A stretch of 64,000 bases of DNA from contig JASMLK010000067.1 of assembly GCA_030748735.1 (NCBI GenBank), positions 161-64,160 of the forward strand, written 5' to 3'. Each line of letters begins with the position of its first letter. The stretch's first letter is position 1. A program made the translations under genes and the position numbers. Below are positions 6,584-25,342 of this stretch, in pieces. The notes below the pieces were generated by a model. It searched no databases, was not told where the DNA came from, and was given only the letters and a program-made list of their open reading frames with translations. Source of the DNA: Myxococcota bacterium (GTDB lineage Bacteria; Myxococcota_A; UBA9160; UBA4427).

Positions 6584-6925
6584 TCAGCGGGCTGCCAGGC
6601 TCGCAAGCGCCGCCATCTCGGCGACCGTCGATGCGTCCAGGATGTTCATGTCCTTGTCGAGCGTTTCGAACACGGGCCCGTCCCCAGCGAAGAGCGAAAA
6701 GAACACGGTCGCACCTTCGGGACCGCCGTACTCCATGTGGGCCTCACCGCCCGGGCTCATCACGTAGGTGCCGGCGGGGCGCACCTTGTGTTCCCCCTCG
6801 CTCCCGTCGTCGTTGATCACGACGATGTGCTGCTCGCCCTCGAGCACGAGGATCGCTGTGTCGGCAATGTGGCGATGGAAGTGGCAGTACGAGTTCGGCG
6901 GCCACTTGACGATCAGGTCGAGGCG
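6584..6925 (-). CDS. cupin-domain protein, 5' end uncertain or possibly truncated
   Basis: Cupin motifs HFHRH...GE and PGGEAH. No ATG/GTG/TTG start lies between the cupin core and the junction with repeat copy A. The 220-aa ORF-track extension runs through repeat sequence. Confidence 0.55.
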   Translation of the reverse strand, partial: RLDLIVKWPPNSYCHFHRHIADTAILVLEGEQHIVVINDDGSEGEHKVRPAGTYVMSPGGEAHMEYGGPEGATVFFSLFAGDGPVFETLDKDMNILDASTVAEMAALASLAAR

Positions 6926-7080
6926 ACCGGTCTCCGGTTCGGATTCGCAATCGGGTGACCGCCAACACCCAGCGGAATCGCGGCCTTTCTCGACCCGAGG
7001 TCGAGCGCGAGGCCAAAGTCTCCGCAACGTGAGACTTGGTGGCGGTGGGTGGAGTCTGGGAGGAACTCGTCTCTGGGGGT
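6926..7080. repeat. Copy A (left-truncated) of the 202-bp repeat family plus tRNA-like 3' end
   Basis: Aligns by eye to copies B/C/D from ccggtctccggttcgg onward. Ends in tggtggcggtgggtggagtct...gaactc at the position where copy D carries the tRNA-Ser 3' end. Confidence 0.8.
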
Positions 7081-7233
7081 GATTCCCTGATCTATAGGGA
7101 AAATACAGGGAATCCGACTGCACTCGAGGATTGTGCGTTGAGTTCCGCGAGCGGAAAACGCCGGGGTTCCGCGTACTTCGCCGAGAGTTCCCTAGGCTCC
7201 GGAACAGCGAACGCTGCCCGGGGAACAGGGAAC
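7081..7233. promoter_or_regulatory. Inverted-repeat module, copy 1 (GATTCCCTG-N16-CAGGGAATC, then a degenerate TTCCCT-N10-CAGCGAA / CAGGGAAC)
   Basis: Perfect 9-bp inverted repeat at 7081-7089 and 7106-7114. The second motif lies 84 bp downstream. The module sits just 3' of the ATPase gene stop. Confidence 0.45.
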
Positions 7234-7291
7234 CTGGCGCCAACAACAGGGAGGCCGCGAGTGTTCCCGCCTCGACCGCGGCCGCCCACAG

Positions 7292-10200
7292 CTACTGCTT
7301 GCCAGCTCGAAGCTGCCACCAGAGGTGGAGCAGCTCGTTGCAGACCTCCTCCGGAAGCTCGCGTGCCGCGGGGCTGGCGAGCGCGCGGGCGATGAGATCC
7401 TGTTCATCGAGCACCGGACGCGGGTCGAGGTAGCCCTCGTCCTCCAGGTAGGTCGCGAGCTTCTCGGCGGCCTTCGGACGGAAGCGTGCGAGGAGTGGGT
7501 GCTCGCGCGATTGCAGAACTTCGATCAGGCGGCGGCCATCGTATCCGAGTTCCATTGCGATGGTCGCGACAGCCTCAAGGTATCGCTCGCTGATTGCGTT
7601 GCTCTCCTCGATTGCGGTGCGGTCAACGGGTTTGCCGCGACCCTCCGACCAGGACTCGCAGAACACTTCGAGGAGCCGCGAACGGGCATCGAGTTGTCTG
7701 GCGGCCTCCGCTTCATCCTTCAGGGAAGCAGCAAGGGGAGCTTCGGTTCGAGACAGCGTCCGCCACTGGCCAACCGTCTCGATCCGACTTGCGACGAGGC
7801 GTTTCAGAACGTGTAGGTCGTCCCAGAGCAGATAAAGCAGATGCTGGCCGAGGTACGCGGGACGCGGGTCGAATGTCGGCACCTCGATGAGAGCACCGTA
7901 CTCGTCCGGGCTAAGCCCGGTGGGGTCCGGAACGCTCGGCGGCGGTGCGATGCGCAACACCTCCGCCGACGACACCGCGGCGATACCCCGGCGCAGAAGC
8001 CCGAGATCAATGACCGCTGGCGGCGAGCAGCCCTCACTCTGGAGCGCTTCTCGGATCCGGTCGACGTCGACGTTGTCGTTCGTCAGATAGAAGATCTGCC
8101 GGTTCTCCTGCTCGGAGATTCGCCCAAGGCTTCGAGCGATGAGGTCGAAGCGCGCGGGATCGCTCTGGTCCAGCGCCTCGTCGAGAAAGAGCGGCAGCGG
8201 ACTCGCCCCTTCAGCTTCTTCAGCGAAGGCGATGCGCACCGCGAGCAGGAGCTGCGCACACTCACCTCCCGAGAGCTCGTTGAGCTGTTTACCCACGCCG
8301 GTACGAGAGGAAACAGCGATGAAGCTGCCACCGACTTCGGGTTCGATTCCGAGCTCGTACTCGTGGTGCGTAAAGAGCGCGAAAAGATCTCGCGCCCGCT
8401 TCAAGACCGCCGGCAGCTGCTTCGTCTCGTGCTCGGTCTTCACCTCGTCTAGGAGGAAGTCGCCGGCCAACGCCTCCAGTCCTCGTTCGCGCTTATCGGC
8501 GAGCATCGCCAGGGCATCGTCGTGACTCGCGATCAGATCCTCGAGGGTATGCGCCTCCGATGCCTGCTTGACCTCCGCCGCGATCTCGGCCGACTCGGTG
8601 CGAGCATCGTCCGCGGCGGCAGTCTCGCTCGCGAGTCGATCGCTCTCTCGCTCGAGGTCGCTCTGATCCAGATTGGCGAGCGCCGATTCGCCGGCCTCGG
8701 AGAGCTTGCGCTCGCCAATCCCGATGCTGGTCTGTAGTCCGCCGACTTCGTTCACTAGCTCCTGGTAGCGCTCAACCTTCCCGAGCAACTGGGAGAGTCC
8801 GGCGCGGTCACCGTGCTCGAGATCCGCGTCCCGGAAGATCTTCGCAATCGCCTCCTCGCTGCTCCGCATCTTCTCCCGCGCAGACTCGAGATCGTCGCTT
8901 GCGCGGCTCTCATCCTTGCGCGAATCCACGAGCAAGCGGCTGAGCTCTTCGACCTCGTGAACCAGAGCCTTCGCTGCCTCCGGGTCCTGGGGATCCTCCT
9001 CCCCGAGCCCAACGAGCCAATTCCCGAGCTCCTCTCGCTTCGCCTCGAAGTCAAGATCCAGGGCGCCGCAGCGACCTTCGGCCGCGGCCTCGGCGTCGCG
9101 CGCTTCGCGTAAGGCAATCAGCGCTCGGGCCGTATCCACCAGCTCCGCTGCTGCCGGGACACGGTCCAGGCGAAGGCGCGCAACGAGTTCCTCACCCCGA
9201 TCGCGGACGCTCTGTTCGCGGGTCCTCGCCGTCTCCAGATCGGATTCAATGCCCGCGCGCTCGATGGACCGGTCGCGCGCCCGCATCTCAGAGGCTCGGG
9301 ACTCCGCGATCTGCTGATCGATCTCCCGGAGTCGCTCATTCACGCTCGCGACCGTCCACGAGGCGGGCGCGTCGACGTTCGGCGGAAAAGCATCCATCGC
9401 CTTCTGCTGCGCGTCGGCGCGATCGTCGCTGCTCGACAGCAGCCAGGCACTGATCGCCCAGACAAGACCAGCGCCCGTGACGCCATGGAACGCCGGGTGG
9501 AACGCGATTCCGAGCGCGAGACCGGTCGCAGCAACGACAAGACCGACGACGGTGGCGGCAACCCGCGTCAGACCACCGATGCGGATTTCCGAGCCGCCCG
9601 TGTCCGGGGCCCTGAGCCAATCCCTCAGAGCCTCTGCCGCGCGCTCCCCGAGCTGCTGCTGCTTTTTTTGCTCCACGCTGAAGTCGTGGCCAGAGAGCAG
9701 CCTGAGGCGCTGCTCCAACGCCGCCCGGCCCTGCTCTACCTCTGTCGCCTCGCGCAGATACCTGTAGAGCTCTTCATCGTCTTCAAGCGCCAGCTCGGGC
9801 GGCGCGTCCTCCGACCCGCCGACGACCCGGCTCGCGTTCACCAGCTTCTTCTTCTCTGCTGCGAGTACGCCATAGGCGGTCTCGCGTCGAAGGGCGAGCT
9901 GCGCCCACGAGTCGGCGCGCTGTCGCCAGGCTGAGAGCTCGGACGCCTCGAGTGGCTCCTCGAGGCGACTCTCGACGATCCGGTTGCGTGCGTCGCGAAG
10001 CTCTCCTTCGTGTTGCGCCACCTTCTCGTTTGCTTCCTCGAGCTTCCGCTCCGCTGTTTCCAGCCAATCGAGCTCCAGGCCGACAATCTTCCCGCACGCA
10101 GGAGGAAGCGCGTCGAGCTCGGCCGTCAAGCGTTTCTGCTGCTCTCGAAGTCCGACCAGCTCTAGCGCCGTCGCAACGTGAGCCTGTCGCACGCGTGCGT

Positions 10201-10780
10201 TCTCACCTTCGCGGATCGTCTGCTCGAGCGAATTGAGTGTTTCTTCCCGCTCGGCCAGCGCCTCCTGCTTCAGCTGTGCCTTGCGAATCGCACCCGCTGC
10301 AGCGTCGACGTCCCTGCACTCCTTTTTCGCGAACCCGCGTCCGACCCTCTCGACGGCCTGGCTCCGCGCCTCTTCGAGGCTATAGCCTCCCGCCATCTGT
10401 AGCCGGATCTGCTTGGCGATCTCGCGGCCGCTCTCAGTCCCGGAGTCCATGAGGTCGCGCACGTCGAGGAGAAAACAGTCTTGGAGATGCCTCGCCGGTA
10501 GCGGCGGAGGCGCGCACTCCACGCCCTCTCGCTGCCAGACGTGGCGCGCACCGTCGCGCTGAACCGACCACGACTCTCCGTCGAGATCGATCCGCGCGTG
10601 GGCTGTCACGGCCGAACCGGACTCGTCGCTCCAGAGTAGGGCCCGGGTCGCGCGGCAGATGCTCGACTTCCCAATCGCGTTCGGGCCGACCACGACGTGC
10701 ACGCCATCGCCGAGCTTTTCGAGCGAGTAGGACGCATCGATTCCGGGGAGACGGACGATCTCCAGCCTGCGGAACTTCAT
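7292..10780 (-). CDS. SMC/Rad50/SbcC-like AAA ATPase (YhaN/SbcE-like) with central hydrophobic hairpin and C-terminal extension
   Basis: 1162 aa. Walker A GPNAIGKS (aa 32-39), long heptad-rich E/R/A/L stretches, two hydrophobic helices at aa 403-450, ABC signature LSGGE (aa 836-840) and Walker B LFLDEA (aa 864-869). Confidence 0.85.
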   Translation of the reverse strand: MKFRRLEIVRLPGIDASYSLEKLGDGVHVVVGPNAIGKSSICRATRALLWSDESGSAVTAHARIDLDGESWSVQRDGARHVWQREGVECAPPPLPARHLQDCFLLDVRDLMDSGTESGREIAKQIRLQMAGGYSLEEARSQAVERVGRGFAKKECRDVDAAAGAIRKAQLKQEALAEREETLNSLEQTIREGENARVRQAHVATALELVGLREQQKRLTAELDALPPACGKIVGLELDWLETAERKLEEANEKVAQHEGELRDARNRIVESRLEEPLEASELSAWRQRADSWAQLALRRETAYGVLAAEKKKLVNASRVVGGSEDAPPELALEDDEELYRYLREATEVEQGRAALEQRLRLLSGHDFSVEQKKQQQLGERAAEALRDWLRAPDTGGSEIRIGGLTRVAATVVGLVVAATGLALGIAFHPAFHGVTGAGLVWAISAWLLSSSDDRADAQQKAMDAFPPNVDAPASWTVASVNERLREIDQQIAESRASEMRARDRSIERAGIESDLETARTREQSVRDRGEELVARLRLDRVPAAAELVDTARALIALREARDAEAAAEGRCGALDLDFEAKREELGNWLVGLGEEDPQDPEAAKALVHEVEELSRLLVDSRKDESRASDDLESAREKMRSSEEAIAKIFRDADLEHGDRAGLSQLLGKVERYQELVNEVGGLQTSIGIGERKLSEAGESALANLDQSDLERESDRLASETAAADDARTESAEIAAEVKQASEAHTLEDLIASHDDALAMLADKRERGLEALAGDFLLDEVKTEHETKQLPAVLKRARDLFALFTHHEYELGIEPEVGGSFIAVSSRTGVGKQLNELSGGECAQLLLAVRIAFAEEAEGASPLPLFLDEALDQSDPARFDLIARSLGRISEQENRQIFYLTNDNVDVDRIREALQSEGCSPPAVIDLGLLRRGIAAVSSAEVLRIAPPPSVPDPTGLSPDEYGALIEVPTFDPRPAYLGQHLLYLLWDDLHVLKRLVASRIETVGQWRTLSRTEAPLAASLKDEAEAARQLDARSRLLEVFCESWSEGRGKPVDRTAIEESNAISERYLEAVATIAMELGYDGRRLIEVLQSREHPLLARFRPKAAEKLATYLEDEGYLDPRPVLDEQDLIARALASPAARELPEEVCNELLHLWWQLRAGKQ

Positions 10781-12123
10781 CGCTCCGCTCCCTCACCGCG
10801 CCTTGTCGGCTCGTGCTGGTCGAGCAGGGCGCTCAGGATCGACGAACCCGCAGCCTTTAGCGCGCGCGTGATCTCCTCATCGGCAAGGGGGTCAGCAGCA
10901 TCCCGCAGGTCTTGCAGTGGAGCGAAGTTCGACGCGTCCGCCAACGTCCGGAGCCTATCCCTCGTGCGGACAATCAGCGCATCGCGCTCCGCCCCCTCAG
11001 TCTCCAGGATCAAGAGCTTTCGGGCGAGCAAGCCAGGCGGGTCGTCTCCCTTGGCAAGCTCATGTAGATCGCGGGCAAGCTCGGTCGCATTGGTGATTTT
11101 GTTCACGACCGCCGTGGTCGCGCCGACGGTTCGGGTGATGTCACTCCAGCGCCGGCCCCCAACCCACGCATCGATCGCCGCGTAGGAGCGCGTGGTACCC
11201 GTCAAGCGTACCCGCAGCGCAAGCACGCTCGGCTCGACTCCTCGGGCGTGCAGCGCGCGAATGCGCTGATCGACGCTGGCGAGAACGGAGTCCCCCAGGT
11301 CCTCGGGCTGTTGATCCGGTTCGATGGCTAGGTCAATCGTCTCCCAGCGGAGCGGCGCGTTAGAGACGTGAGTGAGCGAGGTCTCACCCTCTGCCAGATC
11401 GACAAGCCAGGGACCCCGATCACCAACCTCTTTCGGATTAAGCCCGACAAGGGAGCCAAGGTAACCAGCGCGCAGGCCCGGGTTGTCGGAGCGTGTATCA
11501 CCCAGCGACGGCTTGTGGATGTGCCCGAGCAGCCATGTGTCGATTCCAGTTCGCGCGAGCTCACCCATGGTGACCGGCGCGTAGGGCCCGCCCGATGCAT
11601 CGAGATCGCAATGCATCACGCCGATCCGGGGTACACCCGGCTGCGCGGGAGGCAGCGACGAACCGGCAAAGTCGGCGACCGGACTCGAGGTGACCTGCCG
11701 CTGCGGAAACGACCAGCCCACCACCTCGCAAACCGACCGACCTTCGCGCTCGACCGCGACACACTCCCAACGACCACCCGCGCCGACAATTCGGAAGCCC
11801 GGGATCAACCGCGCAAGTCGCGGCAGTGCCTCGACATCGTGGTTGCCTACGACGCCGAGGACCGTGACACCCTCTGCAAGCAGCTTCAACACCGCCGCTT
11901 CGAGGTGCCGGAACGCCTCGTAGCGAGCGTTCGTGCTCTCGACTACGTCACCCGCAAAGACAACGGCGCTGACATCCTGCTCGGTGGCCAGCCGAACCGC
12001 CGCCTCCAGGCCCGCAGCAGGCGTCAGACGCTGCACGGCGATGCCCCGGTCGGCCGCGTCCTCCGCAACGCCGCTCGGCCGGGTGCCGAGGTGAACGTCG
12101 CCGATCGCAAGCAGCTTGGTCAT
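10777..12123 (-). CDS. Mre11/SbcD-like metallophosphoesterase nuclease (YhaO/SbcF-like)
   Basis: 448 aa with calcineurin-like motifs GDVHLG, FAGDVV, GNHD and GHIH. ATGA overlap with the downstream ATPase gene. Confidence 0.85.
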   Translation of the reverse strand: MTKLLAIGDVHLGTRPSGVAEDAADRGIAVQRLTPAAGLEAAVRLATEQDVSAVVFAGDVVESTNARYEAFRHLEAAVLKLLAEGVTVLGVVGNHDVEALPRLARLIPGFRIVGAGGRWECVAVEREGRSVCEVVGWSFPQRQVTSSPVADFAGSSLPPAQPGVPRIGVMHCDLDASGGPYAPVTMGELARTGIDTWLLGHIHKPSLGDTRSDNPGLRAGYLGSLVGLNPKEVGDRGPWLVDLAEGETSLTHVSNAPLRWETIDLAIEPDQQPEDLGDSVLASVDQRIRALHARGVEPSVLALRVRLTGTTRSYAAIDAWVGGRRWSDITRTVGATTAVVNKITNATELARDLHELAKGDDPPGLLARKLLILETEGAERDALIVRTRDRLRTLADASNFAPLQDLRDAADPLADEEITRALKAAGSSILSALLDQHEPTRRGEGAER

Positions 12124-12130
12124 GCGAGAA

Positions 12131-12254
12131 TCCTATCGGGAAAGTACGGGGAATTCCCTCTGAACCAGGCGAGTTTGGTTCTACCTAGAATGCGATTCGC
12201 CAATGATCCCGCGGATTCAGGCACAAATTCCTTGCGACCAGGAACAGGGAATTC
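12131..12254. promoter_or_regulatory. Inverted-repeat module, copy 2 (partial motif 1, then AATTCCTTG-N10-CAGGGAATT) immediately upstream of the nuclease gene
   Basis: cgggaaagtacggggaattccc lies 10-40 nt upstream of the ATG at 12123. The second motif is 83 bp away, the same spacing as in copies 1 and 3. Confidence 0.45.
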
Positions 12255-12694
12255 GCTCGGACAACCAAGAATTTCTCAGGACCGGGGCGCAGTTGCCCGT
12301 CTGGCCCCGAGCGCGCCCCGAACAAGATGCCGACCTGACTCTGGGAATTTCATCTACGCGCGAACTCCGTGTCGCGAGGTAGCCATCGCCGGACTTGACT
12401 TTTATCAACCTTCATCAACGCGACCGACATGACTGGGAGCAATTCGAAACACGAACGCGTTCCGCTCAGTCATCGGGCGAGACCTCTGAATTGCGTCGAG
12501 GACGACAGGTTTCTCTATCTAGTTTGGCACCCGAGGGTCGCATACGCTGCCGGGGAGCCGCAGTCAGATCCGGGATGGTGCCGCCGACCTAGAAAAGCGT
12601 TGCCGACCAATGACCAAGTTCCTGTCCAGCAAGGATTGCCGATGATCTCTGCAACCGGCAGTAGCGGCCCGAGATGCCCTCGCTCCGCAAGTCA

Positions 12695-12936
12695 CTTTCG
12701 CGCGAATGAAGAGCGAACTTCAACCGCCGGACTCGGCGTCGGAGAAAAGCGCAGACTATGCCGTCACTGGACGCCCGAAATCCCGGTCTCCGGTTCCGGT
12801 ACGCGACGGCGCAACCGCCAACACCCCGCGGAATCGCGGCCTTTTCTCGGCTCGTTCCCGAGCACACGCCGAAAGTCTCTGCATGTGGAGACTTGATGGC
12901 GGTGGGTGGAGTCTCTCGCGAACTCGTCTCTGCAGT
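12695..12936. repeat. Copy B of the 202-bp repeat family plus tRNA-like 3' end
   Basis: Exactly 202 bp from ctttcgcgcgaatgaag to the base before tggcgg, the same length as copies C and D. Followed by tggcggtgggtggagtctctcgcgaactc. Confidence 0.85.
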
Positions 12937-13090
12937 GATTCCCTGTTCCATGGGGAAAGTACAGGGAAGTTCTCCAATATCTCAGTGCCCGGCCAAGGTC
13001 ACGGGCGGAATTGCCGAGCCTTTCCGCAGCCGTAACGTCGAATTCCCTGCGATCCGGAACAGGGAATTCATTTCGGTGTTCAGGGAAATC
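12937..13090. promoter_or_regulatory. Inverted-repeat module, copy 3 (GATTCCCTG-N16-CAGGGAAgt, then perfect GAATTCCCTG-N10-CAGGGAATTC)
   Basis: Perfect 10-bp inverted repeat at 13040-13049 and 13060-13069. Motif-to-motif spacing is 83 bp. Confidence 0.45.
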
Positions 13091-17661: not shown

Positions 17662-18330
17662 ATGGACATCTCCCTCGACCTGACCGATCAGATCGCATGC
17701 ATTCGCATGGACGACGGCAAGAAGAATGCGATCACCCCAGCTGCCGTCGCCGATCTCGCGCAAGCCCTCGACGAGGCAGAGGCCAAGGCCAACGCACTCG
17801 TGCTCGCGGGTCGCCCGGGCTCGTTCTGCGCGGGGTTCGACCTCGCCACCATGACCGGGGGCGACCTGCGCGCAATCGGCGAACTCGGCCGGGGCGGAGG
17901 ACGCCTCGCACTGCGGCTCTACCAATACCCGAAGCCTCTCGTTGCGGCCTGCACCGGCCATGCCTTCACGATCGGGGCGCTCTGGCTCCTGGCTGCGGAT
18001 ACACGAATCGGCGAGGAGGGCCCGTTCAAGCTCGCGATGACCGAAACGAAGATGGGCATGGGCCTGCCCGCCTGGGCCTTCGAGCTGCTCGAGGCGCGAA
18101 TCGCGAATACCCACTTCGTTCCCGTCTGCACGCAGTCCAAGGCCTATGACCCGGTGGGTGCGATCGCTGCGGGCTTCCTCGACGAAGTCGTACCGCAAGG
18201 GAGAGCCGAGGCCGTCGCCCTCGAAACGGCCTCCGAACTCGCGAAGCTCGCACCGGCTGCATATACCGCAAACAAGTTGACACGACGGACCCGAAGCTTC
18301 GAGATTATGGACCGCGATCTCGGGTCCTGA
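17662..18330 (+). CDS. enoyl-CoA hydratase/isomerase (crotonase) family protein
   Basis: Motif GSFCAGFDL and crotonase-like length. Start set at the MDISL ATG. Confidence 0.8.
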   Translation: MDISLDLTDQIACIRMDDGKKNAITPAAVADLAQALDEAEAKANALVLAGRPGSFCAGFDLATMTGGDLRAIGELGRGGGRLALRLYQYPKPLVAACTGHAFTIGALWLLAADTRIGEEGPFKLAMTETKMGMGLPAWAFELLEARIANTHFVPVCTQSKAYDPVGAIAAGFLDEVVPQGRAEAVALETASELAKLAPAAYTANKLTRRTRSFEIMDRDLGS

Positions 18331-18912: not shown

Positions 18913-18940
18913 CGGTACGGATCTCGAAGCGTGGACTTGA

Positions 18941-19166
18941 CTTTCGCGCGAATGAAGAGCGAATCCGGACCGCCGAACTCGCCGACCGAGAAAAGCGCCA
19001 GCAACACGATGACTTGCGGCCCGAAATCCCGGTCTCCGGTTCGGGGACGCAACCGAACAACCGCCAACACCCCACGGAATCGCGTTGTTTTCCGAGACCG
19101 TTCCCGAGCACGGGGCGGAAGTCTCCGCAACGCGGGACTAGATGGCGGAGAGAGTGGGATTCGAAC
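18941..19166. repeat. Copy C of the 202-bp repeat plus a 24-nt exact duplicate of the tRNA-Ser(GGA) 3' end (att-like)
   Basis: 18941-19142 aligns over 202 bp to copy D (roughly 80% identity by eye). 19143-19166 (tggcggagagagtgggattcgaac) is identical to 21278-21301. Confidence 0.85.
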
Positions 19167-19388
19167 TCTCAGTAGGATCTCGCGAATCTTGTGGCGAATG
19201 GAGAACACGCGAATGGGACGCACATGAATTGCGCACTCTTGGAGAGTTCGAACCGTCAGGTGCCCTTGTGCCGTCCCTGACGCCCTCGGTACCCCCATCG
19301 GGGAGCCCAGCGGAGACCGCCATTTCTCGATCAACTCGTTGACGCTCATCCACCTACCGATCTCTGATCGATCTGCTAAACGTAGGTC

Positions 19389-19598
19389 ATGCAAACGGTC
19401 ACTCTGTCTACCAAGTACCAACTCGTCATTCCGCGTGACGTGCGGCAGCGGCTGGAACTCGAGCCGGGGACGAAGCTGACGGTCGTGGAGAAGGGCGGGA
19501 TCCTCTATCTCGTCCCGGAGCGACCGATCGAGGAGATGCGGGGGATCGCTCGCGGAACGCGGAAGAAGGGACTCCGCGAGAAAAAGGATCGCCATTGA
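19389..19598 (+). CDS. vapB: AbrB/MazE/SpoVT-family antitoxin (VapB-like)
   Basis: 69 aa with swapped-hairpin motif YQLVIPRDVRQRLELEPG. 4-nt overlap with the PIN gene. Confidence 0.8.
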   Translation: MQTVTLSTKYQLVIPRDVRQRLELEPGTKLTVVEKGGILYLVPERPIEEMRGIARGTRKKGLREKKDRH

Positions 19599-19963
19599 TC
19601 CTCGTCGACTCGAGCGGCTGGATCGAGTACCTCGCGGCGCGGCCCAAGGCGGATTCCTTTGCACCGTACATTGAAGGAACGGAGCCTCTCGTCTCGAGCG
19701 CGATTCAGATCTACGAGATCTACAAGGTCGTCAGAAGAGACGTGAGTGAAGAGCGAGCGATTGCCGCGGTATCGGCGCTCCGAACGACGACGATCGAACC
19801 CCTGGCCGATACTCTGGCCCTTGAAGCCGCCGACATCGCCCTGGAATTCGGGCTCGCGATGGCGGATGCGATCATCTTCGCGACGGCTGCACGACACGAA
19901 GCCGAAATCGTGACAGGCGATGCGGACTTCGAGGGTCTGCCGAAAGTAACGCTGATCCGCTGA
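19595..19963 (+). CDS. vapC: PIN-domain ribonuclease toxin (VapC-like)
   Basis: 122 aa with MILVDSSGWIEYL and later acidic residues (ADAIIFATA...TGDADF), typical of VapC. Confidence 0.85.
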   Translation: MILVDSSGWIEYLAARPKADSFAPYIEGTEPLVSSAIQIYEIYKVVRRDVSEERAIAAVSALRTTTIEPLADTLALEAADIALEFGLAMADAIIFATAARHEAEIVTGDADFEGLPKVTLIR

Positions 19964-20008: not shown

Positions 20009-20815
20009 TCAGCTGTTCGCCCGCTCGAACTCCTCGAATCGTACCGTCAGCGCTTCACGACTGGGACGCTGAGCTGCGGCGCGGGGAAGTTCGATGCGCG
20101 TCTCGTGAATCTCCTGAAGCCCGTGCCTCAGCATCGGACCATCCGACTCCGAAAGAATCCGCTGGGGCACGACGATTCGGAAGTCGGGTTGAATACCGAG
20201 CAGATTCCGATCGAACGCGGCATGGTGGATCTTGCAGAGGCTGATGCCGTTCGAGACGACCGGCTCTCCGTCCGGATCGGAGTCGGCGACGATGTGTGCG
20301 GCGTCGAGCAACTCGGCATGCTTGAGCCGGCAGACGGCACAATGCTCCCGGTAGGCTCGCAAGACGCGTTGCCGGAACGTCTGCTGGTGTAGGCGCTGTC
20401 GGGTCGTGACGAGGCCGTACCGGCGGGTGAGATCGGGCTCAGAAACGCGATCATCCAATGAGACCCCCGTCGCGAGACTGTCGACGTCGAGCCGAAACTC
20501 CAAGCAGTCGGGAGAGTCGCCGATGACATGTACTGGCCACGCCGCTAGATACTTGCCCGGCACCGTCGCATGGAAGTAGATCAGCGGCGCGTTTGCCCGC
20601 ATCGCGTTTCGGACCCACCGGTTGTTGTGGTGATCCGGATCCGTTCCGCGGTACTTGTAGATGACCGTCCCGTCGGGCTGAAAGCCGTCGTCATACGGCC
20701 GAGGCCTGCCCGGTTTGGGTGCGACGGTGGTGAGGCTCAGTGCGCGATCGTCGAGGATGGCGGGCTTGAAGATCCCTTGCGGTCCAATCAGTCTGACCTG
20801 CTTCGCACGGAACAT
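20009..20815 (-). CDS. HNH endonuclease (HNH_2 / putative restriction endonuclease family), probably disrupted at its 5' end
   Basis: CAVC...LLDAAHI...NGISLCKIHHAAFD HNH core. The frame continues upstream to an ATG at 20926 but is broken by an in-frame TAG at 20882-20884. Confidence 0.7.
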   Translation of the reverse strand: MFRAKQVRLIGPQGIFKPAILDDRALSLTTVAPKPGRPRPYDDGFQPDGTVIYKYRGTDPDHHNNRWVRNAMRANAPLIYFHATVPGKYLAAWPVHVIGDSPDCLEFRLDVDSLATGVSLDDRVSEPDLTRRYGLVTTRQRLHQQTFRQRVLRAYREHCAVCRLKHAELLDAAHIVADSDPDGEPVVSNGISLCKIHHAAFDRNLLGIQPDFRIVVPQRILSESDGPMLRHGLQEIHETRIELPRAAAQRPSREALTVRFEEFERANS

Positions 20816-21075
20816 GAAACCATTCGCGAGAGTCTCTCGATCGAACGTCTCGCCAAAGAGCCTGGTCTGTTCCGCGAGAAACTAAAACGCGGCGGAACGA
20901 ACAGCAGAATCCAGTTCGTCGGGCATAGTCCGTTCTCGGGCTCCCGTCGCCGTCAACGTCGCTCGAGGCTCTCGAATGATCGTTTCGAACGATAGGACCA
21001 TCAAGCGCGATCCGTGGTGCGGAAATGTCGCTCGAATGCACCGATCCCTCGAAGGGGATCGACAATCGGCTCGCA

Positions 21076-21277
21076 CTTTCGCGCGAATGAAGAGCGAATC
21101 CGGACCGCCGAACTGGCCGGCAGAGAAAAGCGCCGCCAACGCGATGACTTGCGGCCTGAAAGCCGAGTCTCCGGTTCGGGAACGCAAGAGCACAACCGCC
21201 AACACCCCGCGGAATCGCGGCCTTTTCGCGGATCGTTCCCGAGCGCACGCCGAAAGTCTCTGCGCTTAGAGACCAAA
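21076..21277. repeat. Copy D of the 202-bp repeat, directly 3' of intact tRNA-Ser(GGA)
   Basis: 202 bp from ctttcgcgcgaatgaag to the base before the tRNA CCA end. Contains hairpin GTCTCT-N6-AGAGAC next to the tRNA end. Confidence 0.85.
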
Positions 21278-21365
21278 TGGCGGAGAGAGTGGGATTCGAA
21301 CCCACGGTAGGTTGCCCTACACACGCTTTCCAAGCGTGCGCCTTAAGCCACTCGGCCATCTCTCC
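21278..21365 (-). tRNA. tRNA-Ser (anticodon GGA)
   Basis: 88 nt. 5' GGAGAGA pairs with TCTCTCC, discriminator G, encoded CCA, anticodon loop TTGGAAA, long variable arm, T-loop GGTTCGAATCC. Confidence 0.9.
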
Positions 21366-21508
21366 GCGTAGGGGTCTTGCCGCCCGCCCGCCGCGCTTCC
21401 TTCTATCTACCTGCGCCGTGCCGGAGCGAACGGCGCCCGTGCCCAGGGCGCGCTCCGGGGCTAGACCAAGGAGAGCGCCTGCGGCGCTAGCCATTCGCGG
21501 CTTCGCCG

Positions 21509-21602
<94 letters not shown>

Positions 21603-21913
21603 GCAGCGGCAGACCATAACGAAAACACGGGCATACGGCGGTTCGGGCGGGGCGGATTTCTGGCGATTTCCCGCCCAGAAGCCCCAACCTCGGCGGCGAG
21701 AACCGCCGGCCGCCAGCTCCCAGCCGGGTGTGGGCAAGCTGACAGGTAGATAGAAGGACGAACCCCGGCCCTCAGCACCAGAGGAGCGCCCGCGCGGCCC
21801 AGCCAGTGCGCCACGCGCACTTGCGCAAATCAGAGCGCCTGCGGCCCAAGCGGTCGCGGCGCGCGCTGGGAAAAGGGAGGACGCCTGTGGCCAAGCCATT
21901 CCGCGCCCCGCGC

Positions 21914-22007
<94 letters not shown>

Positions 22008-22149
22008 GGCGGGCTAGCGCGAAGACCGGGGCTTTTCGCCGCCCGGGCTCGCGATCACGGGCGAATCCTAGCGAGCATTTCGGCCCCGTCTCGTCTGCGA
22101 CCGCCTCTTTGTGGTTCCGCCCGGGGCGCTGTGCTTCTCTACCGCCACC

Positions 22150-23427
22150 ATGTTGGACCCCAAGACCCTCACCGACCGGCGCGACGAGATCGCGCACAGC
22201 TGCAAGGCGCGCGGCATCGACGTCGACCTCGACGCGATCGCGCGCGTGCACCGCGACCACAACCTGCTCGTGACCGAGCTCGGCGACGTCAATCGCCAAC
22301 GCAACGAGCACCAGAAGTCGGGCAAGCGCAAGATGGACCCCGAAGAGCGCGAGGCCCACACCGCCGAGGGGCGCCGCTTCAAGGAGCAGGTCGCCACGAT
22401 CGAAGCGCGCCTGCGCGAGAGCGAGTCGGTCCTCACCGCGGCGCTGCGGCGGCTACCCAACTTCCTCCATCCCGAAAGCCCGATCGGCGGCGAAGAAGAC
22501 TTCCGCGAGATCAGCCGCTCGGGCGAGATCCCGAAGTTCGACTTCGAGCCGAAGAACCACCTTCAGCTCTGCGAAGACCTCGACCTCGTCGACTTCGAAC
22601 GCGCGGCCAGGGTGGCGGGTTCGAAGTGGTACTACCTGAAGAACGAAGCCGCGCTGCTCGACATCGCGCTGCAACGCTTCGCCCTCGACATCCTGATGGA
22701 AGAGGGCTTCACGCCCGTCACCACGCCCGACGTCGCGCGGCCCGACATCGTCGAAGGCCTCGGCTTCAACCCGCGCGGTGAAGAGACGCAGATCTACACG
22801 CTCGAGAACGCCGACCTCTGCCTGGTGGGCACCGCGGAGATCACCCTCGGTGGCATGTACGCGGACACGATCTTCGACGAAGACGACCTGCCGATCAAAC
22901 TCGCGGGTGTTTCCCACTGCTTCCGCACCGAAGCCGGTGCTGCGGGCCGCGAAAGCAAGGGGCTCTATCGCGTTCATCAATTCACCAAGACGGAGATGTT
23001 CGTCTTCACGACGCCCGAACAATCCGAAGCCCAGCACGATGAATTGCTGCGCATCGAAAAGCGGGTCTTCGACGCACTCGAAATCCCCTACCGCGTGATC
23101 GACATCGCGACCGGCGACCTCGGTGCGCCCGCCTACCGCAAGTTCGACCTCGAAGCCTGGATGCCCGGGCGCGGCGAAAGCGGGGAGTGGGGCGAGATCA
23201 CGAGCACGTCGAACTGCACCGACTTCCAGGCACGCCGTTTGAAGCTCCGCTTCAAGCGCAAGGGCAGCAAGAAGAACGAGATGCTCCACACGCTGAATGG
23301 CACCGCGATCTCGAACGCGCGCGCGATCCTCTCGCTGCTCGAAGTCCATCAGCAGAAAGACGGCAGCGTTCGCATCCCCGAAGCGCTGCAACCCTACATG
23401 GGACGAGAGCAGATTGGCCCCCGCTGA
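22150..23427 (+). CDS. serS: seryl-tRNA synthetase
   Basis: N-terminal coiled-coil arm and class II motifs (FRTEAG, GLYRVHQFTKTEMF, NGTAIS...R). Start at the MLDPK ATG. Confidence 0.95.
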   Translation: MLDPKTLTDRRDEIAHSCKARGIDVDLDAIARVHRDHNLLVTELGDVNRQRNEHQKSGKRKMDPEEREAHTAEGRRFKEQVATIEARLRESESVLTAALRRLPNFLHPESPIGGEEDFREISRSGEIPKFDFEPKNHLQLCEDLDLVDFERAARVAGSKWYYLKNEAALLDIALQRFALDILMEEGFTPVTTPDVARPDIVEGLGFNPRGEETQIYTLENADLCLVGTAEITLGGMYADTIFDEDDLPIKLAGVSHCFRTEAGAAGRESKGLYRVHQFTKTEMFVFTTPEQSEAQHDELLRIEKRVFDALEIPYRVIDIATGDLGAPAYRKFDLEAWMPGRGESGEWGEITSTSNCTDFQARRLKLRFKRKGSKKNEMLHTLNGTAISNARAILSLLEVHQQKDGSVRIPEALQPYMGREQIGPR

Positions 23428-25342
23428 CGCGCTGGTTCTCGGCACGGCGGGCCACATCGATCACGGCAAGACGAGCTTGATCCGGGCGCTCACCGGCGTC
23501 GACACCGATCGCCTGCCCGAAGAGAAGGCGCGCGGCATCACGATCGACCTGGGCTTCGCGGCCCTCGACCTCGAAGACGACCTGCGCGTCGCGATCGTCG
23601 ACGTGCCGGGGCACGAGAAGCTCGTGCGCACCATGGTTTCGGGCGCGGCGGGCATCGACCTGGTCATGTTGGTCGTCGCCGCCGACGAAGGCGTCATGCC
23701 GCAGACTCGCGAACACGTCGCCATCTGCGAGCTACTCGGCATCGAAACCGGGCTCGTGGCGATCACGAAGAGCGACCTCGCCGACGAAGAGGTCGTGGAA
23801 CTCGCGCAGGAAGAGATCGCCGACCTGCTCTCGGATACCGCTCTCGCCGACGTGTCGATGGTGCCCGTTTCATCAGAAACCGGTGAGGGGATCGATCGGC
23901 TGCGGGAAGAACTCGCGAAGCTCGTGCGCGAAACGCGGCCGCGAACACCGCGCTTCGGACCGAGCCGCCTTTCGATCGACCGCGCGTTCGCGATGAAGGG
24001 CTTCGGCACCGTGGTGACGGGGACGTTGCTCGGGGGTCGACTCGATAGTGGTGCGAACGTCGAAGTGCACCCGCGCGGCTCGAAGGCCCGTGTGCGGGGC
24101 TTGCAGTCGCACGGCGAAGCGCGTGATCGCGTCGAACCCGGTGCGCGTTGCGCCGTCAACCTGCAGGGCGTGGAAGTCGCGGATGTGTCGCGCGGCGACG
24201 TGATCGGCCGGCCGGACGCGATCATTTCGACCCAGACCCTCGACGTGGAATTGCTCTGGCTACCCGGCGCCCCCGCCGCGGAAGGCACCGTGTCGATCGA
24301 GTTCTTGAGCGGCACCGCCGAACGGCGCGCACGACTCGCCCCGATCGGAGACGACGAATTCACTCCGGGCGCAAAATCGTTCGCACGCATTCACATCGAC
24401 GGCGACCCGGTGCCGCTGGTGGTCGGCGACCGCTTCATCGCGCGGGGTTTCGCGCGGCTCGAAGGCTCGGGGGCGACGCTCGGCGGCGGGGTGATCCTCG
24501 ACGTGGCTCCACCGCACCGACGCAGAAGCGATCCCGACCTGGTGCGCGAACTCACGGTGCTCGCCGCCGGCGAACTCCGCAGCGCCGTGCGCGAACGCGT
24601 CATCCGCACCGGCATGAGTGGGGCGGCCGAGAAGGACATCGCACTCGAAGTCGGTCTCGAGACCCACCAACTCCGGGGCGAACTCGCTGCGCTCGAAAGC
24701 GAGGGATGCGTGGTGAAAGCAGGCAGTGGCCGCTGGCTCGGCGAGCCGGTCGTCGCCCGCATGGAAGCGCGACTGCTCGAAGTACTCGACGAATTCCACC
24801 GCACCGAACCCCTGCGTCCCGGGATGAGCCGCAGCACGCTGCGCGGTCAACTTCCCGACAACGTGCGCGCCGAAGGCGCTGAACTCGCGATCAAGCGTCT
24901 CGAAGACAAGAACGAGGTTTGCGTCGGGGGCGAATACGCCTGGCGCAGCAGCTTCTCACCCACCCTCGACGCGGCGAGTGAAGCCCTGGTGGCGACGCTT
25001 CGCGAACAAGCCAGCGACGCAGGGCTCGAACCCCCTTCACTCAAGGACTGGGCCGAACGTCTCGACACGAGCGTCGAGACGCTGCGCGACCTCATGGCCT
25101 ATCTCGAACGCGGCGGCGAGATCGTACGCGCACCCGGAGACCTCTTCTTCTCGAGCGCGGCCATCGATGCACTGAAGGGGCGCGTGGCCGATCACTTCGC
25201 GCAAACCGAAGAACTCGACACCCAGACCTACAAAGACATCATCGGAACGAGTCGCCGCACCGCGATGCCGTTGATGGAGCTGCTCGACGACCTGCACGTG
25301 ACACGCCGCGTGGGTGACGTGCGCGTCGCGCGCAAGGCTTGA
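23414..25342 (+). CDS. selB: selenocysteine-specific translation elongation factor
   Basis: G-domain GTAGHIDHGKTSL, DVPGHEK, TKSD, followed by EF-Tu-like domains and a long winged-helix-type C-terminus (about 640 aa). No in-frame ATG near the G-domain; start proposed at an in-frame TTG overlapping the serS end by 14 nt. Confidence 0.8.
   Translation: MAPADALVLGTAGHIDHGKTSLIRALTGVDTDRLPEEKARGITIDLGFAALDLEDDLRVAIVDVPGHEKLVRTMVSGAAGIDLVMLVVAADEGVMPQTREHVAICELLGIETGLVAITKSDLADEEVVELAQEEIADLLSDTALADVSMVPVSSETGEGIDRLREELAKLVRETRPRTPRFGPSRLSIDRAFAMKGFGTVVTGTLLGGRLDSGANVEVHPRGSKARVRGLQSHGEARDRVEPGARCAVNLQGVEVADVSRGDVIGRPDAIISTQTLDVELLWLPGAPAAEGTVSIEFLSGTAERRARLAPIGDDEFTPGAKSFARIHIDGDPVPLVVGDRFIARGFARLEGSGATLGGGVILDVAPPHRRRSDPDLVRELTVLAAGELRSAVRERVIRTGMSGAAEKDIALEVGLETHQLRGELAALESEGCVVKAGSGRWLGEPVVARMEARLLEVLDEFHRTEPLRPGMSRSTLRGQLPDNVRAEGAELAIKRLEDKNEVCVGGEYAWRSSFSPTLDAASEALVATLREQASDAGLEPPSLKDWAERLDTSVETLRDLMAYLERGGEIVRAPGDLFFSSAAIDALKGRVADHFAQTEELDTQTYKDIIGTSRRTAMPLMELLDDLHVTRRVGDVRVARKA

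Follow-up and report, generated by a model that had tools for sequence, protein, structure and literature searches.

The window, by which we mean the whole 64-kb stretch of DNA that was analyzed, holds on its minus strand a pair of overlapping genes, placed between two direct repeats. The open reading frames at 10777-12123 (448 aa) and 7292-10780 (1162 aa) share four nucleotides, ATGA, and their coordinates agree with the coupled nuclease and ATPase genes of the original prediction. The 3' side of the ATPase gene displays only a hairpin and the first repeat, with no yhaM-type gene. The features of the pair are as follows.

10777..12123, minus strand: nuclease gene, 448 aa; Mre11/SbcD-fold metallophosphoesterase of the YhaO/SbcF type
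7292..10780, minus strand: ATPase gene, 1162 aa; split ABC head of SMC/Rad50 type, long coiled coil
10777..10780, minus strand: ATGA start/stop overlap of the two genes, from the ORF coordinates; found likewise in the Listeria yhaO/yhaN-type pair
7253..7283, minus strand: GC-rich hairpin, likely a terminator, directly past the ATPase stop codon

The hairpin adopts the form GGCCGCG-N17-CGCGGCC, followed by TCCCTGTTGTTGG. A simple terminator scan did not call it; it lies within the block of sequence common to the relatives and is kept in two of them (L004 and L008).

The two subunits

The nuclease matches the Pfam Metallophos profile with 34.6 bits against a cutoff of 21.5, and 32 homologues all retain its metal-binding and catalytic residues (D9, H11, D59, N94, H95, H171, H201 and H203). 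Foldseek searches with its AF2 model (pLDDT 84.5) return Mre11/SbcD structures for all top matches, with E about 1e-12 and a probability of 1.0. The NCBIfam SbcD and Mre11 models (TIGR00619 sbcd, NF008206 and the Mre11 equivalogs) score only 15-24 bits at cutoffs of 77-550, TIGR00619 reaching 21 bits at a cutoff of 77.65. By fold and motifs, the 448-aa protein is a Mre11/SbcD-fold nuclease with a predicted activity.

The ATPase has a split ABC head formed by residues 1-150 and 790-930, in which the Walker A residues G32 and K38, the signature S837 and the Walker B residue D867 are invariant among the aligned homologues. The Rad50 head matches 3qf7 by sequence (E 1.4e-6), and the AF2 model (pLDDT 83) matches SMC5/6, condensin and Rad50 in Foldseek. 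Pfam AAA_27 (PF13514) is barely above its cutoff (23.9 bits, cutoff 22), with a match of the N-terminal 52 aa to profile positions 1-53 of 206, and SMC_N stays below cutoff. A hydrophobic hairpin at residues ~403-450 occupies the middle of the coiled coil, where a zinc hook would be. All 34 aligned homologues carry one or two hydrophobic 19-mers at residues ~395-470, and a CxxC zinc hook at the apex is present in none of the 34. It follows from the sequence that the coiled-coil apex would be a hairpin inserted in the membrane, taking the place of a zinc hook. The additional helical domain at the C-terminus, about 260 aa (residues ~958-1159), gave no match.

Comparison with known nuclease-ATPase systems

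Among described systems, the pair stands nearest to YhaN/YhaO (SbcE/SbcF) of Bacillus subtilis and other Firmicutes, in line with the original prediction and now supported by comparison with a Listeria operon and by the hook-less hydrophobic centre. To our knowledge, these are the least understood bacterial relatives of Rad50/Mre11 and have so far been described only in Firmicutes. SbcE lacks a hook, carries a unique central domain whose first half is hydrophobic, and plays a part in double-strand-break repair and competence (PMC2811018). As in that system, an adjacent SbcD-like nuclease gene (yhaO there) stands upstream of the ATPase gene with a start/stop overlap, the ATPase has no CxxC and a hydrophobic centre (aa 403-450 here, aa 431-467 in Listeria), and its N-terminus gives a marginal AAA_27 match (52 aa). 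The Listeria reference is a full-length AAA_27 protein of 907 aa (profile positions 1-204, 80 bits), encoded between yhaO-like and yhaM-like genes. BLASTP aligns our ATPase with this YhaN-type protein only at the C-terminal head (E 1e-6) and the P-loop, and the likeness consists of the head regions (27% over 111 aa) plus the architecture. The nuclease and the Listeria YhaO-type protein share 25% identity over 270 aa (E 3e-21).

There are also distinct differences. The ATPase described here is about 255 aa longer, through its conserved C-terminal helical domain, whereas the Listeria YhaN-type protein ends about 18 aa past the head. A yhaM-type exoribonuclease gene is missing downstream, although that gene may be a feature of the Firmicutes operon which need not define the protein pair. 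The hosts are Gram-negative bacteria and members of other phyla, and the present pair lies within a tRNA-linked insertion hotspot. With the same hook-less apex and an added conserved C-terminal domain, the pair belongs to a predicted sister clade of SbcE/SbcF.

This clade is large and spread over many phyla, Gram-negative hosts included; the nuclease family comprises 696 clusters at 50% identity (E<=1e-30). The order of nuclease gene, then ATPase gene holds in 76 of 86 loci, and this self-contained two-gene module has no conserved third partner across the 86. The locus places the SbcE/SbcF architecture outside the Firmicutes, and the purpose of a membrane-tethered DNA-end nuclease becomes testable in new hosts.

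SbcCD/Mre11-Rad50 resembles the pair in the nuclease-plus-capping-domain fold, the split ABC head with a long antiparallel coiled coil, and the two-gene operon, but differs by its zinc hook in place of the hydrophobic apex; the NCBIfam SbcD and Mre11 models fall far below cutoff on our nuclease. An SMC- or ABC-type ATPase is also paired with a nuclease in Lamassu (LmuB), Wadjet (JetC) and Gabija (GajA), and JetC and LmuB chains appear at lower rank in the Foldseek list of the ATPase. Unlike these systems, the pair has no kleisin, JetD, LmuA or LmuC partner, and its nuclease is Mre11-fold. PADLOC matches LmuB, GajA and mad3 to the ATPase over a ~35-residue P-loop region only, with E 2.5e-5 or weaker, and PADLOC-DB v2 gives no match to the nuclease. 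The absence of a system match from PADLOC bears out the view that the pair matches no named defence system.

Repeats at a tRNA-Ser flank

The repeat family is represented by four copies in the window, A to D. Copy A covers 6927-7112 and runs on to 7232; copy B covers 12783-12968, runs on to 13087 and reaches left to 12694. The two were predicted to bracket the pair in direct orientation, and they do so with 76-88% identity. Their host part is F, the conserved ~200-nt 3' flank of tRNA-Ser genes.

6584..6943, minus strand: cupin gene remnant, fused to F at a microhomology
6927..7045, plus strand: copy A host part; truncated F, about 113 of ~200 nt, with tRNA tip
7046..7232, plus strand: copy A phage-type arm; TGGGTGGAGTC..GAACTCGTCTCTG, then CAGGGAA/TTCCCTG boxes
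12128..12254, plus strand: third, partial phage-type arm; both box modules, without tRNA tip or F
12694..12902, plus strand: copy B host part; full-length F and tRNA 3' tip (12897-12902)
12903..13087, plus strand: copy B phage-type arm; six CAGGGAA-type boxes
18940..19190, plus strand: copy C; F and about 41 nt of the tRNA-Ser 3' end
21075..21365, minus strand: copy D, anchor of the array; F immediately 3' of the intact tRNA-Ser(gga)

The tRNA 3' tip of copy A is TGGCGG (7040-7045), and the repeat of copy D (21075-21311) abuts a real tRNA-Ser(gga) gene at 21278-21365 on the minus strand. Five other copies, taken from three or more genomes, align with the arm of copy A, as do two IMG/VR viral contigs, L213 and L207, which are either free phage genomes or prophage ends; in the viral contigs, the phage-type arm adjoins ParB-methylase and terminase genes. 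The boxes are clearly enriched: CAGGGAA is observed 14 times against 5.4 expected, with 10 of the 14 between 7083 and 13087, and TTCCCTG-N16-CAGGGAA twice against 0.10 expected. The third arm consists of inverted-repeat sub-modules at 12128-12156 and 12226-12254, spaced by ~100 nt as in the other copies. It begins 5 nt ahead of the start codon of the nuclease gene, confirming the partial module proposed on the 5' leader, and stands in place of the upstream sequence common to the relatives.

Among 42 aligned copies of F, about half end in a phage-type arm and the rest in a real or partial tRNA-Ser. We read repeats A and B as junction scars that combine the host flank F, the tRNA 3' tip and the phage arm; they record an integration history and are not the sites by which the pair moves. 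Their likeness to known tRNA integration scars (attL/attR, island accretion) lies in direct repeats that hold the tRNA 3' end, an array starting at an intact tRNA-Ser beside serS, an arm with repeated 7-bp boxes common to viral contigs, and accessory genes as cargo. In contrast to such scars, the repeated unit reaches about 200 nt past the tRNA into its flank, no integrase is found in any unit examined, and some units (tRNA tip-F, 233-290 nt apart) are directly tandem with no cargo. Multiple copies of F and cargo-less tandem units are not expected from simple integration at one tRNA.

The original prediction took A and B for the ends of a cassette specific to the pair, which would be moved by site-specific or homologous recombination. 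The direct bracketing agrees with this, as do the even tighter direct bracket formed by the arm modules at 7079-7232 and 12128-12254 and the resemblance of the arm boxes to recombinase arm-type sites. However, repeats of the same family bracket unrelated segments and occur in >60 other contigs without the pair; they are largely dispersed, with no preferential association to it. Repeats directly flank the pair in none of the relatives, the block shared with them ends inside the brackets of the window, and the contigs of four sequencing runs display no deletion or circle joints, although contigs hide rare forms. An integron-type or repeat-defined cassette would have the same repeats around the same cargo elsewhere and a linked recombinase, neither of which was found, the 64-kb window included for the recombinase. 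We consider this explanation highly improbable and the pair most likely acquired, sitting between phage attachment-site scars in a tRNA-Ser insertion hotspot of a marine myxobacterial genome. As a caution for annotation, direct repeats around a gene pair may be the scars of another element, not cassette ends.

At the left border, the cupin gene has lost its 5' end, as originally noted. It lacks the first ~38 codons compared with intact orthologues of 159 aa (L020) and 153 aa (L049), and its homology ends at 6943, 17 nt inside the repeat, where cupin and F join within an imperfect microhomology of ~16 nt. The statement that genes outside the brackets are ordinary metabolism stands only in part. 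Much of the cargo is metabolic, but the segment between B and C is itself bracketed by repeats, with content unrelated to the pair, and that between C and D holds a toxin-antitoxin pair (PIN/MazE) and a nuclease of the HNH type (HNH_2).

Relatives, mobility and possible role

Close relatives with 81-86% aa identity carry the pair in five different contexts and not at a conserved core locus. Homology among them covers the operon only, with margins of about 12-35 nt on the upstream side and 55-125 nt on the downstream side. The acquired cassette of the original prediction thus survives as an acquired, movable module, but not with A and B as its ends. The argument from differing contexts is weakened by the poor synteny of these genomes, which extends even to ordinary genes.

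The 83%-identical relative L004 offers a greater level of detail. Here, terminase and ParB-methylase genes are followed by a 15-kb slot that contains the pair and ends in an arm-tRNA tip-F junction like those of the window, beyond which lie porin and LysR genes. Positions 1-2677 of L004 (terminase, DUF5681, ParB-methylase) are collinear with the viral contigs L213 and L207, and positions 18010-18099 match their arm; the slot between terminase and arm spans 1.4-3 kb in these contigs. One repeat copy in L004 lies 4.4 kb downstream of the pair. The neighbours of the pair there are a DUF429 gene and a gene for a 1130-aa AAA_11/AAA_12 helicase with DUF559 and MTES_1575 nuclease-type domains. The same helicase gene adjoins the pair in L007, and in L008 a decayed arm remnant of ~70 nt follows directly after the pair. 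An integrase and an attL end were seen in no locus examined. A prophage origin in the window is inferred from the relatives, since no integrase or recombinase, attL or phage gene is left in its 64 kb.

Several phages encode Rad50/Mre11 homologues, and the location inside a prophage-like element in L004 could point at a recombination nuclease of the phage itself, acting in its replication or recombination like T4 gp46/gp47 or T5 D12/D13. Against this, the related viral contigs have only the short slot and lack the pair, which is absent from IMG/VR viral contigs and phage records except for probable Listeria host fragments, and hundreds of chromosomal loci carry it without phage genes. We also know of no membrane anchor in phage gp46/47-type proteins. 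The chance that the pair serves the phage in this way appears very slim.

Instead, we favor as the probable explanation a membrane-tethered Mre11/Rad50-type complex of the SbcE/SbcF class, carried as mobile cargo, with the repeats as integration scars. Judging from fold and motifs, a dimeric metallophosphoesterase nuclease would be seated on the ATP-driven heads of the SMC-like ATPase. By analogy with SbcCD and SbcE/SbcF, such a complex would bind and cut DNA ends or hairpins near the inner membrane in an ATP-dependent manner. In this lineage the pair would travel as cargo, as suggested by its att-site-proximal slot in a prophage-like element beside the tRNA-Ser flank in L004. The window would have kept only the cargo and the junction scars, each composed of F, tRNA tip and phage arm and lying among further such junctions that are arrayed downstream of tRNA-Ser(gga). 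The rest of the copy A flank and the start of the cupin gene could have been lost together through a microhomology-mediated deletion or a secondary-site event.

The function of such a complex might also lie in dedicated anti-phage or anti-plasmid defence or prophage exclusion, by cutting incoming linear foreign DNA at the membrane. This possibility, which we hold to be doubtful though worth weighing, fits the prophage cargo slot of L004 beside the DUF429 and helicase-nuclease-type genes, the L004-type helicase next to the pair in L007, and the varying context among close relatives. It also agrees with the behavior of B. subtilis SbcE, which collects at the pole where competent cells take in DNA (PMC2811018). 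However, PADLOC matches stay at P-loop level for the ATPase and are lacking for the nuclease, and the pair is absent from IMG/VR viral contigs and phage records beyond the Listeria fragments mentioned. Its immediate surroundings, taken as two genes to either side in ~65 species, consist of ordinary housekeeping or metabolic genes and are not enriched in mobile-element or defence families, and shared neighbour clusters indicate a locus conserved within several genera.

A broader version would make the whole widespread, unnamed SbcE/SbcF-like clade an innate inner-membrane barrier to incoming linear DNA, used by temperate phages of marine Myxococcota as exclusion cargo; we regard this as unlikely. 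The prophage cargo slot, together with the many toxin-antitoxin and nuclease genes of the tRNA-Ser hotspot, nevertheless gives a concrete reason to test exclusion and defence alongside repair. In favor of a defence role, the tRNA-Ser/F hotspot holds PIN/MazE and HNH_2 in the window, an OLD-family AAA_15-TOPRIM gene, Phd/PIN, Fic and a PLD-helicase with DUF3427 in other MAGs, and PIN, Fic and UvrD in metagenome contigs. Much of the cargo of this hotspot is metabolic, which speaks against a dedicated defence role.

The gene pair and its two proteins

ORF calls place two genes on the minus strand, overlapping through a shared ATGA:

10777-12123, minus strand: nuclease gene, 448 aa
7292-10780, minus strand: ATPase gene, 1162 aa

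The 448-aa nuclease lies above the Pfam Metallophos cutoff in a profile search, and its Mre11-type metal and catalytic residues are all invariant among 32 homologues. Its AlphaFold model (pLDDT 84.5) has solely Mre11/SbcD nuclease-plus-capping structures as its top Foldseek hits; its scores against the NCBIfam SbcD and Mre11 models fall far under their cutoffs. In the ATPase, the Walker A, signature and Walker B motifs are invariant in the homologue alignment, Rad50 is matched by sequence in the C-terminal head, and the AlphaFold model (pLDDT 83) shows a long coiled coil attached to a head of the SMC/Rad50 type. At its apex (aa ~403-450) the coil forms a hydrophobic hairpin in 34/34 aligned homologues, down to 25% identity, and none of these carries a CxxC hook there. 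C-terminal to the head follows a helical domain of ~260 aa, conserved clade-wide, for which a PDB sequence search gave no match.

The hook-less hydrophobic apex is as described for B. subtilis SbcE (YhaN), which has a hook-less, hydrophobic central domain, acts in double-strand-break repair and competence, and is partnered by the SbcD-like YhaO/SbcF (Krishnamurthy et al., PMC2811018). A record deposited as 'UNVERIFIED_ORG Listeria phage' (L216, GenBank OR846761.1) allows for a direct comparison, as it holds three consecutive genes in a yhaO-yhaN-yhaM arrangement:

Gene 1, 411 aa: Metallophos match
Gene 2, 907 aa: full-length AAA_27 match
Gene 3, 328 aa: HD/OB domains

The window nuclease matches the 411-aa protein with 25% identity over 270 aa (E 3e-21), and the ATPase aligns with the 907-aa protein in the C-terminal head and P-loop only. 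Like the window ATPase, the Listeria protein has a hydrophobic hairpin (aa 431-467) without CxxC. It stops right past the head, whereas the window ATPase carries the additional C-terminal domain, and the yhaM partner of the Listeria operon is missing from the window pair. These features mark the pair as a divergent member of the SbcE/SbcF class that carries an extra C-terminal domain and lacks a yhaM partner, and the original prediction of YhaN/YhaO as the closest described relatives agrees with the nuclease match and the common hook-less hairpin. We take an operon of the yhaO-yhaN-yhaM type to be typical of the Listeria chromosome; the record is probably host DNA, not phage.

Our preferred reading of the pair is a DNA-end processing complex tethered to the membrane. 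The fold and motifs of the proteins, their architecture and the order of the genes show its SbcE/SbcF class; the processing activity and the membrane localisation of the complex are what we infer.

Composite repeats around the pair

The predicted bracketing of the overlapping genes by direct repeats is confirmed by the ORFs and the repeat alignment. Four copies of the repeat family are present, each with all or part of a ~200-nt sequence, here called F:

6927-7232: composite repeat A, left of the pair, in direct orientation to B (F at 6927-7039)
12694-13087: composite repeat B, right of the pair, in direct orientation to A (F at 12694-12896)
18940-19190: copy C (F at 18940-19140)
21075-21311: copy D, which runs on its right into the 3' end of the intact tRNA-Ser(gga) (F at 21075-21277)
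21278-21365: intact tRNA-Ser(gga) gene

A and B are 76-88% identical. The motif TTCCCTG-N16-CAGGGAA occurs twice in the window (0.10 expected), and 10 of the 14 CAGGGAA heptamers fall within 7083-13087. As anticipated for the 5' side of the operon, both box modules recur a third time at 12128-12254, again ~100 nt apart, and this copy directly adjoins the start codon of the nuclease gene. At the left border the cupin ORF has indeed lost its 5' end: orthologues in two related Myxococcota genomes have 159 and 153 aa, and their homology to the window ends at 6943, ~38 codons into the gene. Where the two meet, cupin codons and a conserved box of the repeat share an imperfect 16-nt microhomology.

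In window + orientation the composite repeat consists of F, a tRNA tip and an arm. The tip comprises the last tRNA bases, TGGCGG on the window + strand. The arm reads TGGGTGGAGTC..GAACTCGTCTCTG, followed by six CAGGGAA/TTCCCTG boxes with variable spacers, and is conserved across six copies from at least three genomes; the copy at the operon start lacks both tip and F. In several Myxococcota MAGs, and on metagenome contigs, F forms the immediate 3' flank of tRNA-Ser genes (gct, cga, gga). It occurs in >60 contigs. The sequence is multi-copy in marine and sediment Myxococcota, with copies on L010-L017 and L150-L206. Of 42 aligned F copies, roughly half bear the phage-type arm; in the rest F adjoins a tRNA-Ser end, real or partial.

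On two viral contigs from IMG/VR, L213 and L207, the arm and the arm core are present without F, 1.4-3 kb from ParB-N6/N4-methylase and large-terminase genes. They represent a phage family of marine Myxococcota in which the six-box attachment-site arm stands beside these genes, with a cargo slot ranging from 1.4 kb to 15 kb; the L213 slot holds an IS (rve). The regions concerned are:

L213 6657-6866
L207 99-420
L004, a contig with relatives of the pair, 1-2677 and 17830-18105

We set aside a reading of the boxes as operators of the neighbouring TetR gene, since in other genomes they accompany the tip and F, and viral contigs carry them too.

F contains the inverted boxes CCGAACCG/CGGTTCGG and GAGAC/GTCTC, and also a hairpin resembling a terminator (CCCGCG-GAAT-CGCGGG+TTTTC), which lies opposite to the tRNA strand. 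Rfam gave no match for the repeats at gathering or permissive thresholds. RNAalifold of 16 and of 42 copies yielded invariant helices only; in a hand-drawn fold 91.6% of cells pair, with a single covarying pair. F may encode a small RNA, act as a site of protein binding or recombination, or combine the two roles. A coding reading was set aside in view of indels and box-like conservation, and a tRNA-like minihelix for the degenerate tRNA piece was rejected as the upstream complement is missing in the F-bearing contigs L016 and L206.

On other contigs tip-F units also follow one another directly in tandem, at 233-290 nt spacing and without intervening genes:

L171 2464-2831
L155 156-537
L206 2131-2482
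L016 27-528

Simple integration at one tRNA duplicates the core only, not 200 nt of downstream flank. The four F copies in the window and the tandem units are thus unaccounted for by such an event.

A and B themselves are two arm-tRNA tip-F junctions. The whole 64-kb window contains no phage gene or recombinase. Contigs of four seawater runs, which cannot reveal rare forms, held no deletion or circle joints at the repeats. Base composition gave no island signal (GC 0.59-0.70, first 30 kb profiled), and simple promoter and terminator scans of the locus were uninformative.

Relatives of the pair and their contexts

On metagenome contigs, relatives whose proteins are 81-86% identical stand in five differing contexts. 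Their DNA homology to the window is limited to 7168/7236-12135, and the common block is the operon with ~12-35 nt upstream and the downstream hairpin. The argument from differing contexts is tempered by poor synteny at this divergence even for the window's ordinary genes. The proposal that A and B are the ends of the pair's own cassette finds no support in this block, reduced to the operon alone, nor in the spread of F over many contigs. The repeats are probably scars of integration history.

L004, whose ATPase is 83% identical to that of the window, offers a greater level of detail. It begins with terminase, DUF5681 and ParB-methylase genes (1-2677) collinear with L213/L207 at 50-60% amino acid identity. 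The viral arm is matched at 18010-18099, followed by F and then host genes (porin, LysR). The 15 kb from methylase to arm hold DUF429, an AAA_11/12-DUF559 helicase, the pair, a 547-aa unknown and a DnaJ-domain gene. With phage genes on one side and the arm/F end on the other, the pair in L004 appears to occupy, as cargo, the slot next to the attachment site of a prophage-like element, with arm-tRNA tip-F as a putative attR-type junction. L008, another contig carrying the pair, retains a decayed arm remnant of ~70 nt directly after it, which suggests that the link between this pair lineage and the arm is old.

The pair is acquired. In this lineage it would move as cargo of a tRNA-Ser-associated prophage-like element, as seen in L004 and as we infer for the window.

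A ~1120-aa AAA_11/AAA_12 helicase with DUF559 and MTES_1575 nuclease-type domains adjoins the pair in two otherwise differing contexts, and may work together with it or travel along as cargo:

L004 5112-8504, minus strand
L007 4239-7583, plus strand

On L001 a 116-aa ORF (8089-8439, minus strand), 490 nt upstream of the pair, matches integrase N-terminal domains below threshold (DUF6538 23.3 bits, Arm-DNA-bind_3 17.5 bits) and may be an integrase remnant; no copies were found elsewhere.

At E<=1e-30 the nuclease has 696 relatives, counted as representatives of 50%-identity clusters. We surveyed 86 loci from Myxococcota, Alpha- and Gammaproteobacteria, Binatia, Planctomycetota, Gemmatimonadota and others. 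An ATPase gene of ~1160 aa lies 3' of the nuclease gene in 76, that is, in every locus where ORF calls and contig ends leave it visible, and no third gene recurs in more than 5 of the 86. The two nearest genes on each side encode HAD hydrolases, prolyl-tRNA synthetase, an ammonium transporter, peptidases and Crp regulators, with a few PIN and helicase genes; integrases and transposases are absent from the frequent neighbour families. Neighbours are common to members within some genera, and haloarchaeal megaplasmids carry distant relatives. The pair was not found in real phage records or IMG/VR. At family level it looks like a self-contained chromosomal module and no defence-island resident.

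A tRNA-Ser-anchored insertion hotspot

Further repeat intervals of the window hold other genes, with PIN/MazE and HNH_2 right downstream of tRNA-Ser(gga):

B to C: TetR, molybdopterin oxidoreductase, MarR, GST, enoyl-CoA hydratase, DUF1993
C to D: PIN/MazE toxin-antitoxin pair, HNH_2 nuclease
19595-19963, plus strand: PIN-domain toxin, MazE-type antitoxin gene adjacent
20009-20815, minus strand: HNH_2 endonuclease, 268 aa

Beside F in other MAGs we found an OLD-family AAA_15-TOPRIM nuclease, Phd/PIN pairs, Fic, and Lhr-like and PLD-ResIII-DUF3427 helicases, at:

L016 783-2603 and 3271-5394
L013 908-4009
L011 272-2438

On metagenome contigs the company is mixed, with PIN, rve_3 and Fic foremost, plus metabolic genes. 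This variety of genes between F copies indicates that the locus is an insertion hotspot anchored at tRNA-Ser, whose accessory cargo is heterogeneous and includes the pair as one item.

Such local company is the sole support for a defence or exclusion role of the pair, a live minority reading that we consider rather unlikely, given the ordinary contexts family-wide and the lack of profile matches. PADLOC profiles matched the ATPase at P-loop level only and the nuclease not at all, in line with the earlier view that it belongs to no named defence system, and a literature search on SbcCD-like defence systems, PF13514 and COG4717 found nothing relevant.

The tRNA-Ser genes gga, gct and tga stand in tandem directly beside serS (21278-25342), with two core genes to their right:

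22111-23427: serS
23297-25342: selB-type elongation factor gene

Further right, ~27000-54000 is occupied by a large sugar/nonulosonic-acid-type biosynthesis cluster (NeuB, CTP_transf_like, radical SAM/SPASM, MptE-like, transketolase halves, several epimerases and methyltransferases), after which comes a proton-antiporter/NADH-dehydrogenase-type operon.
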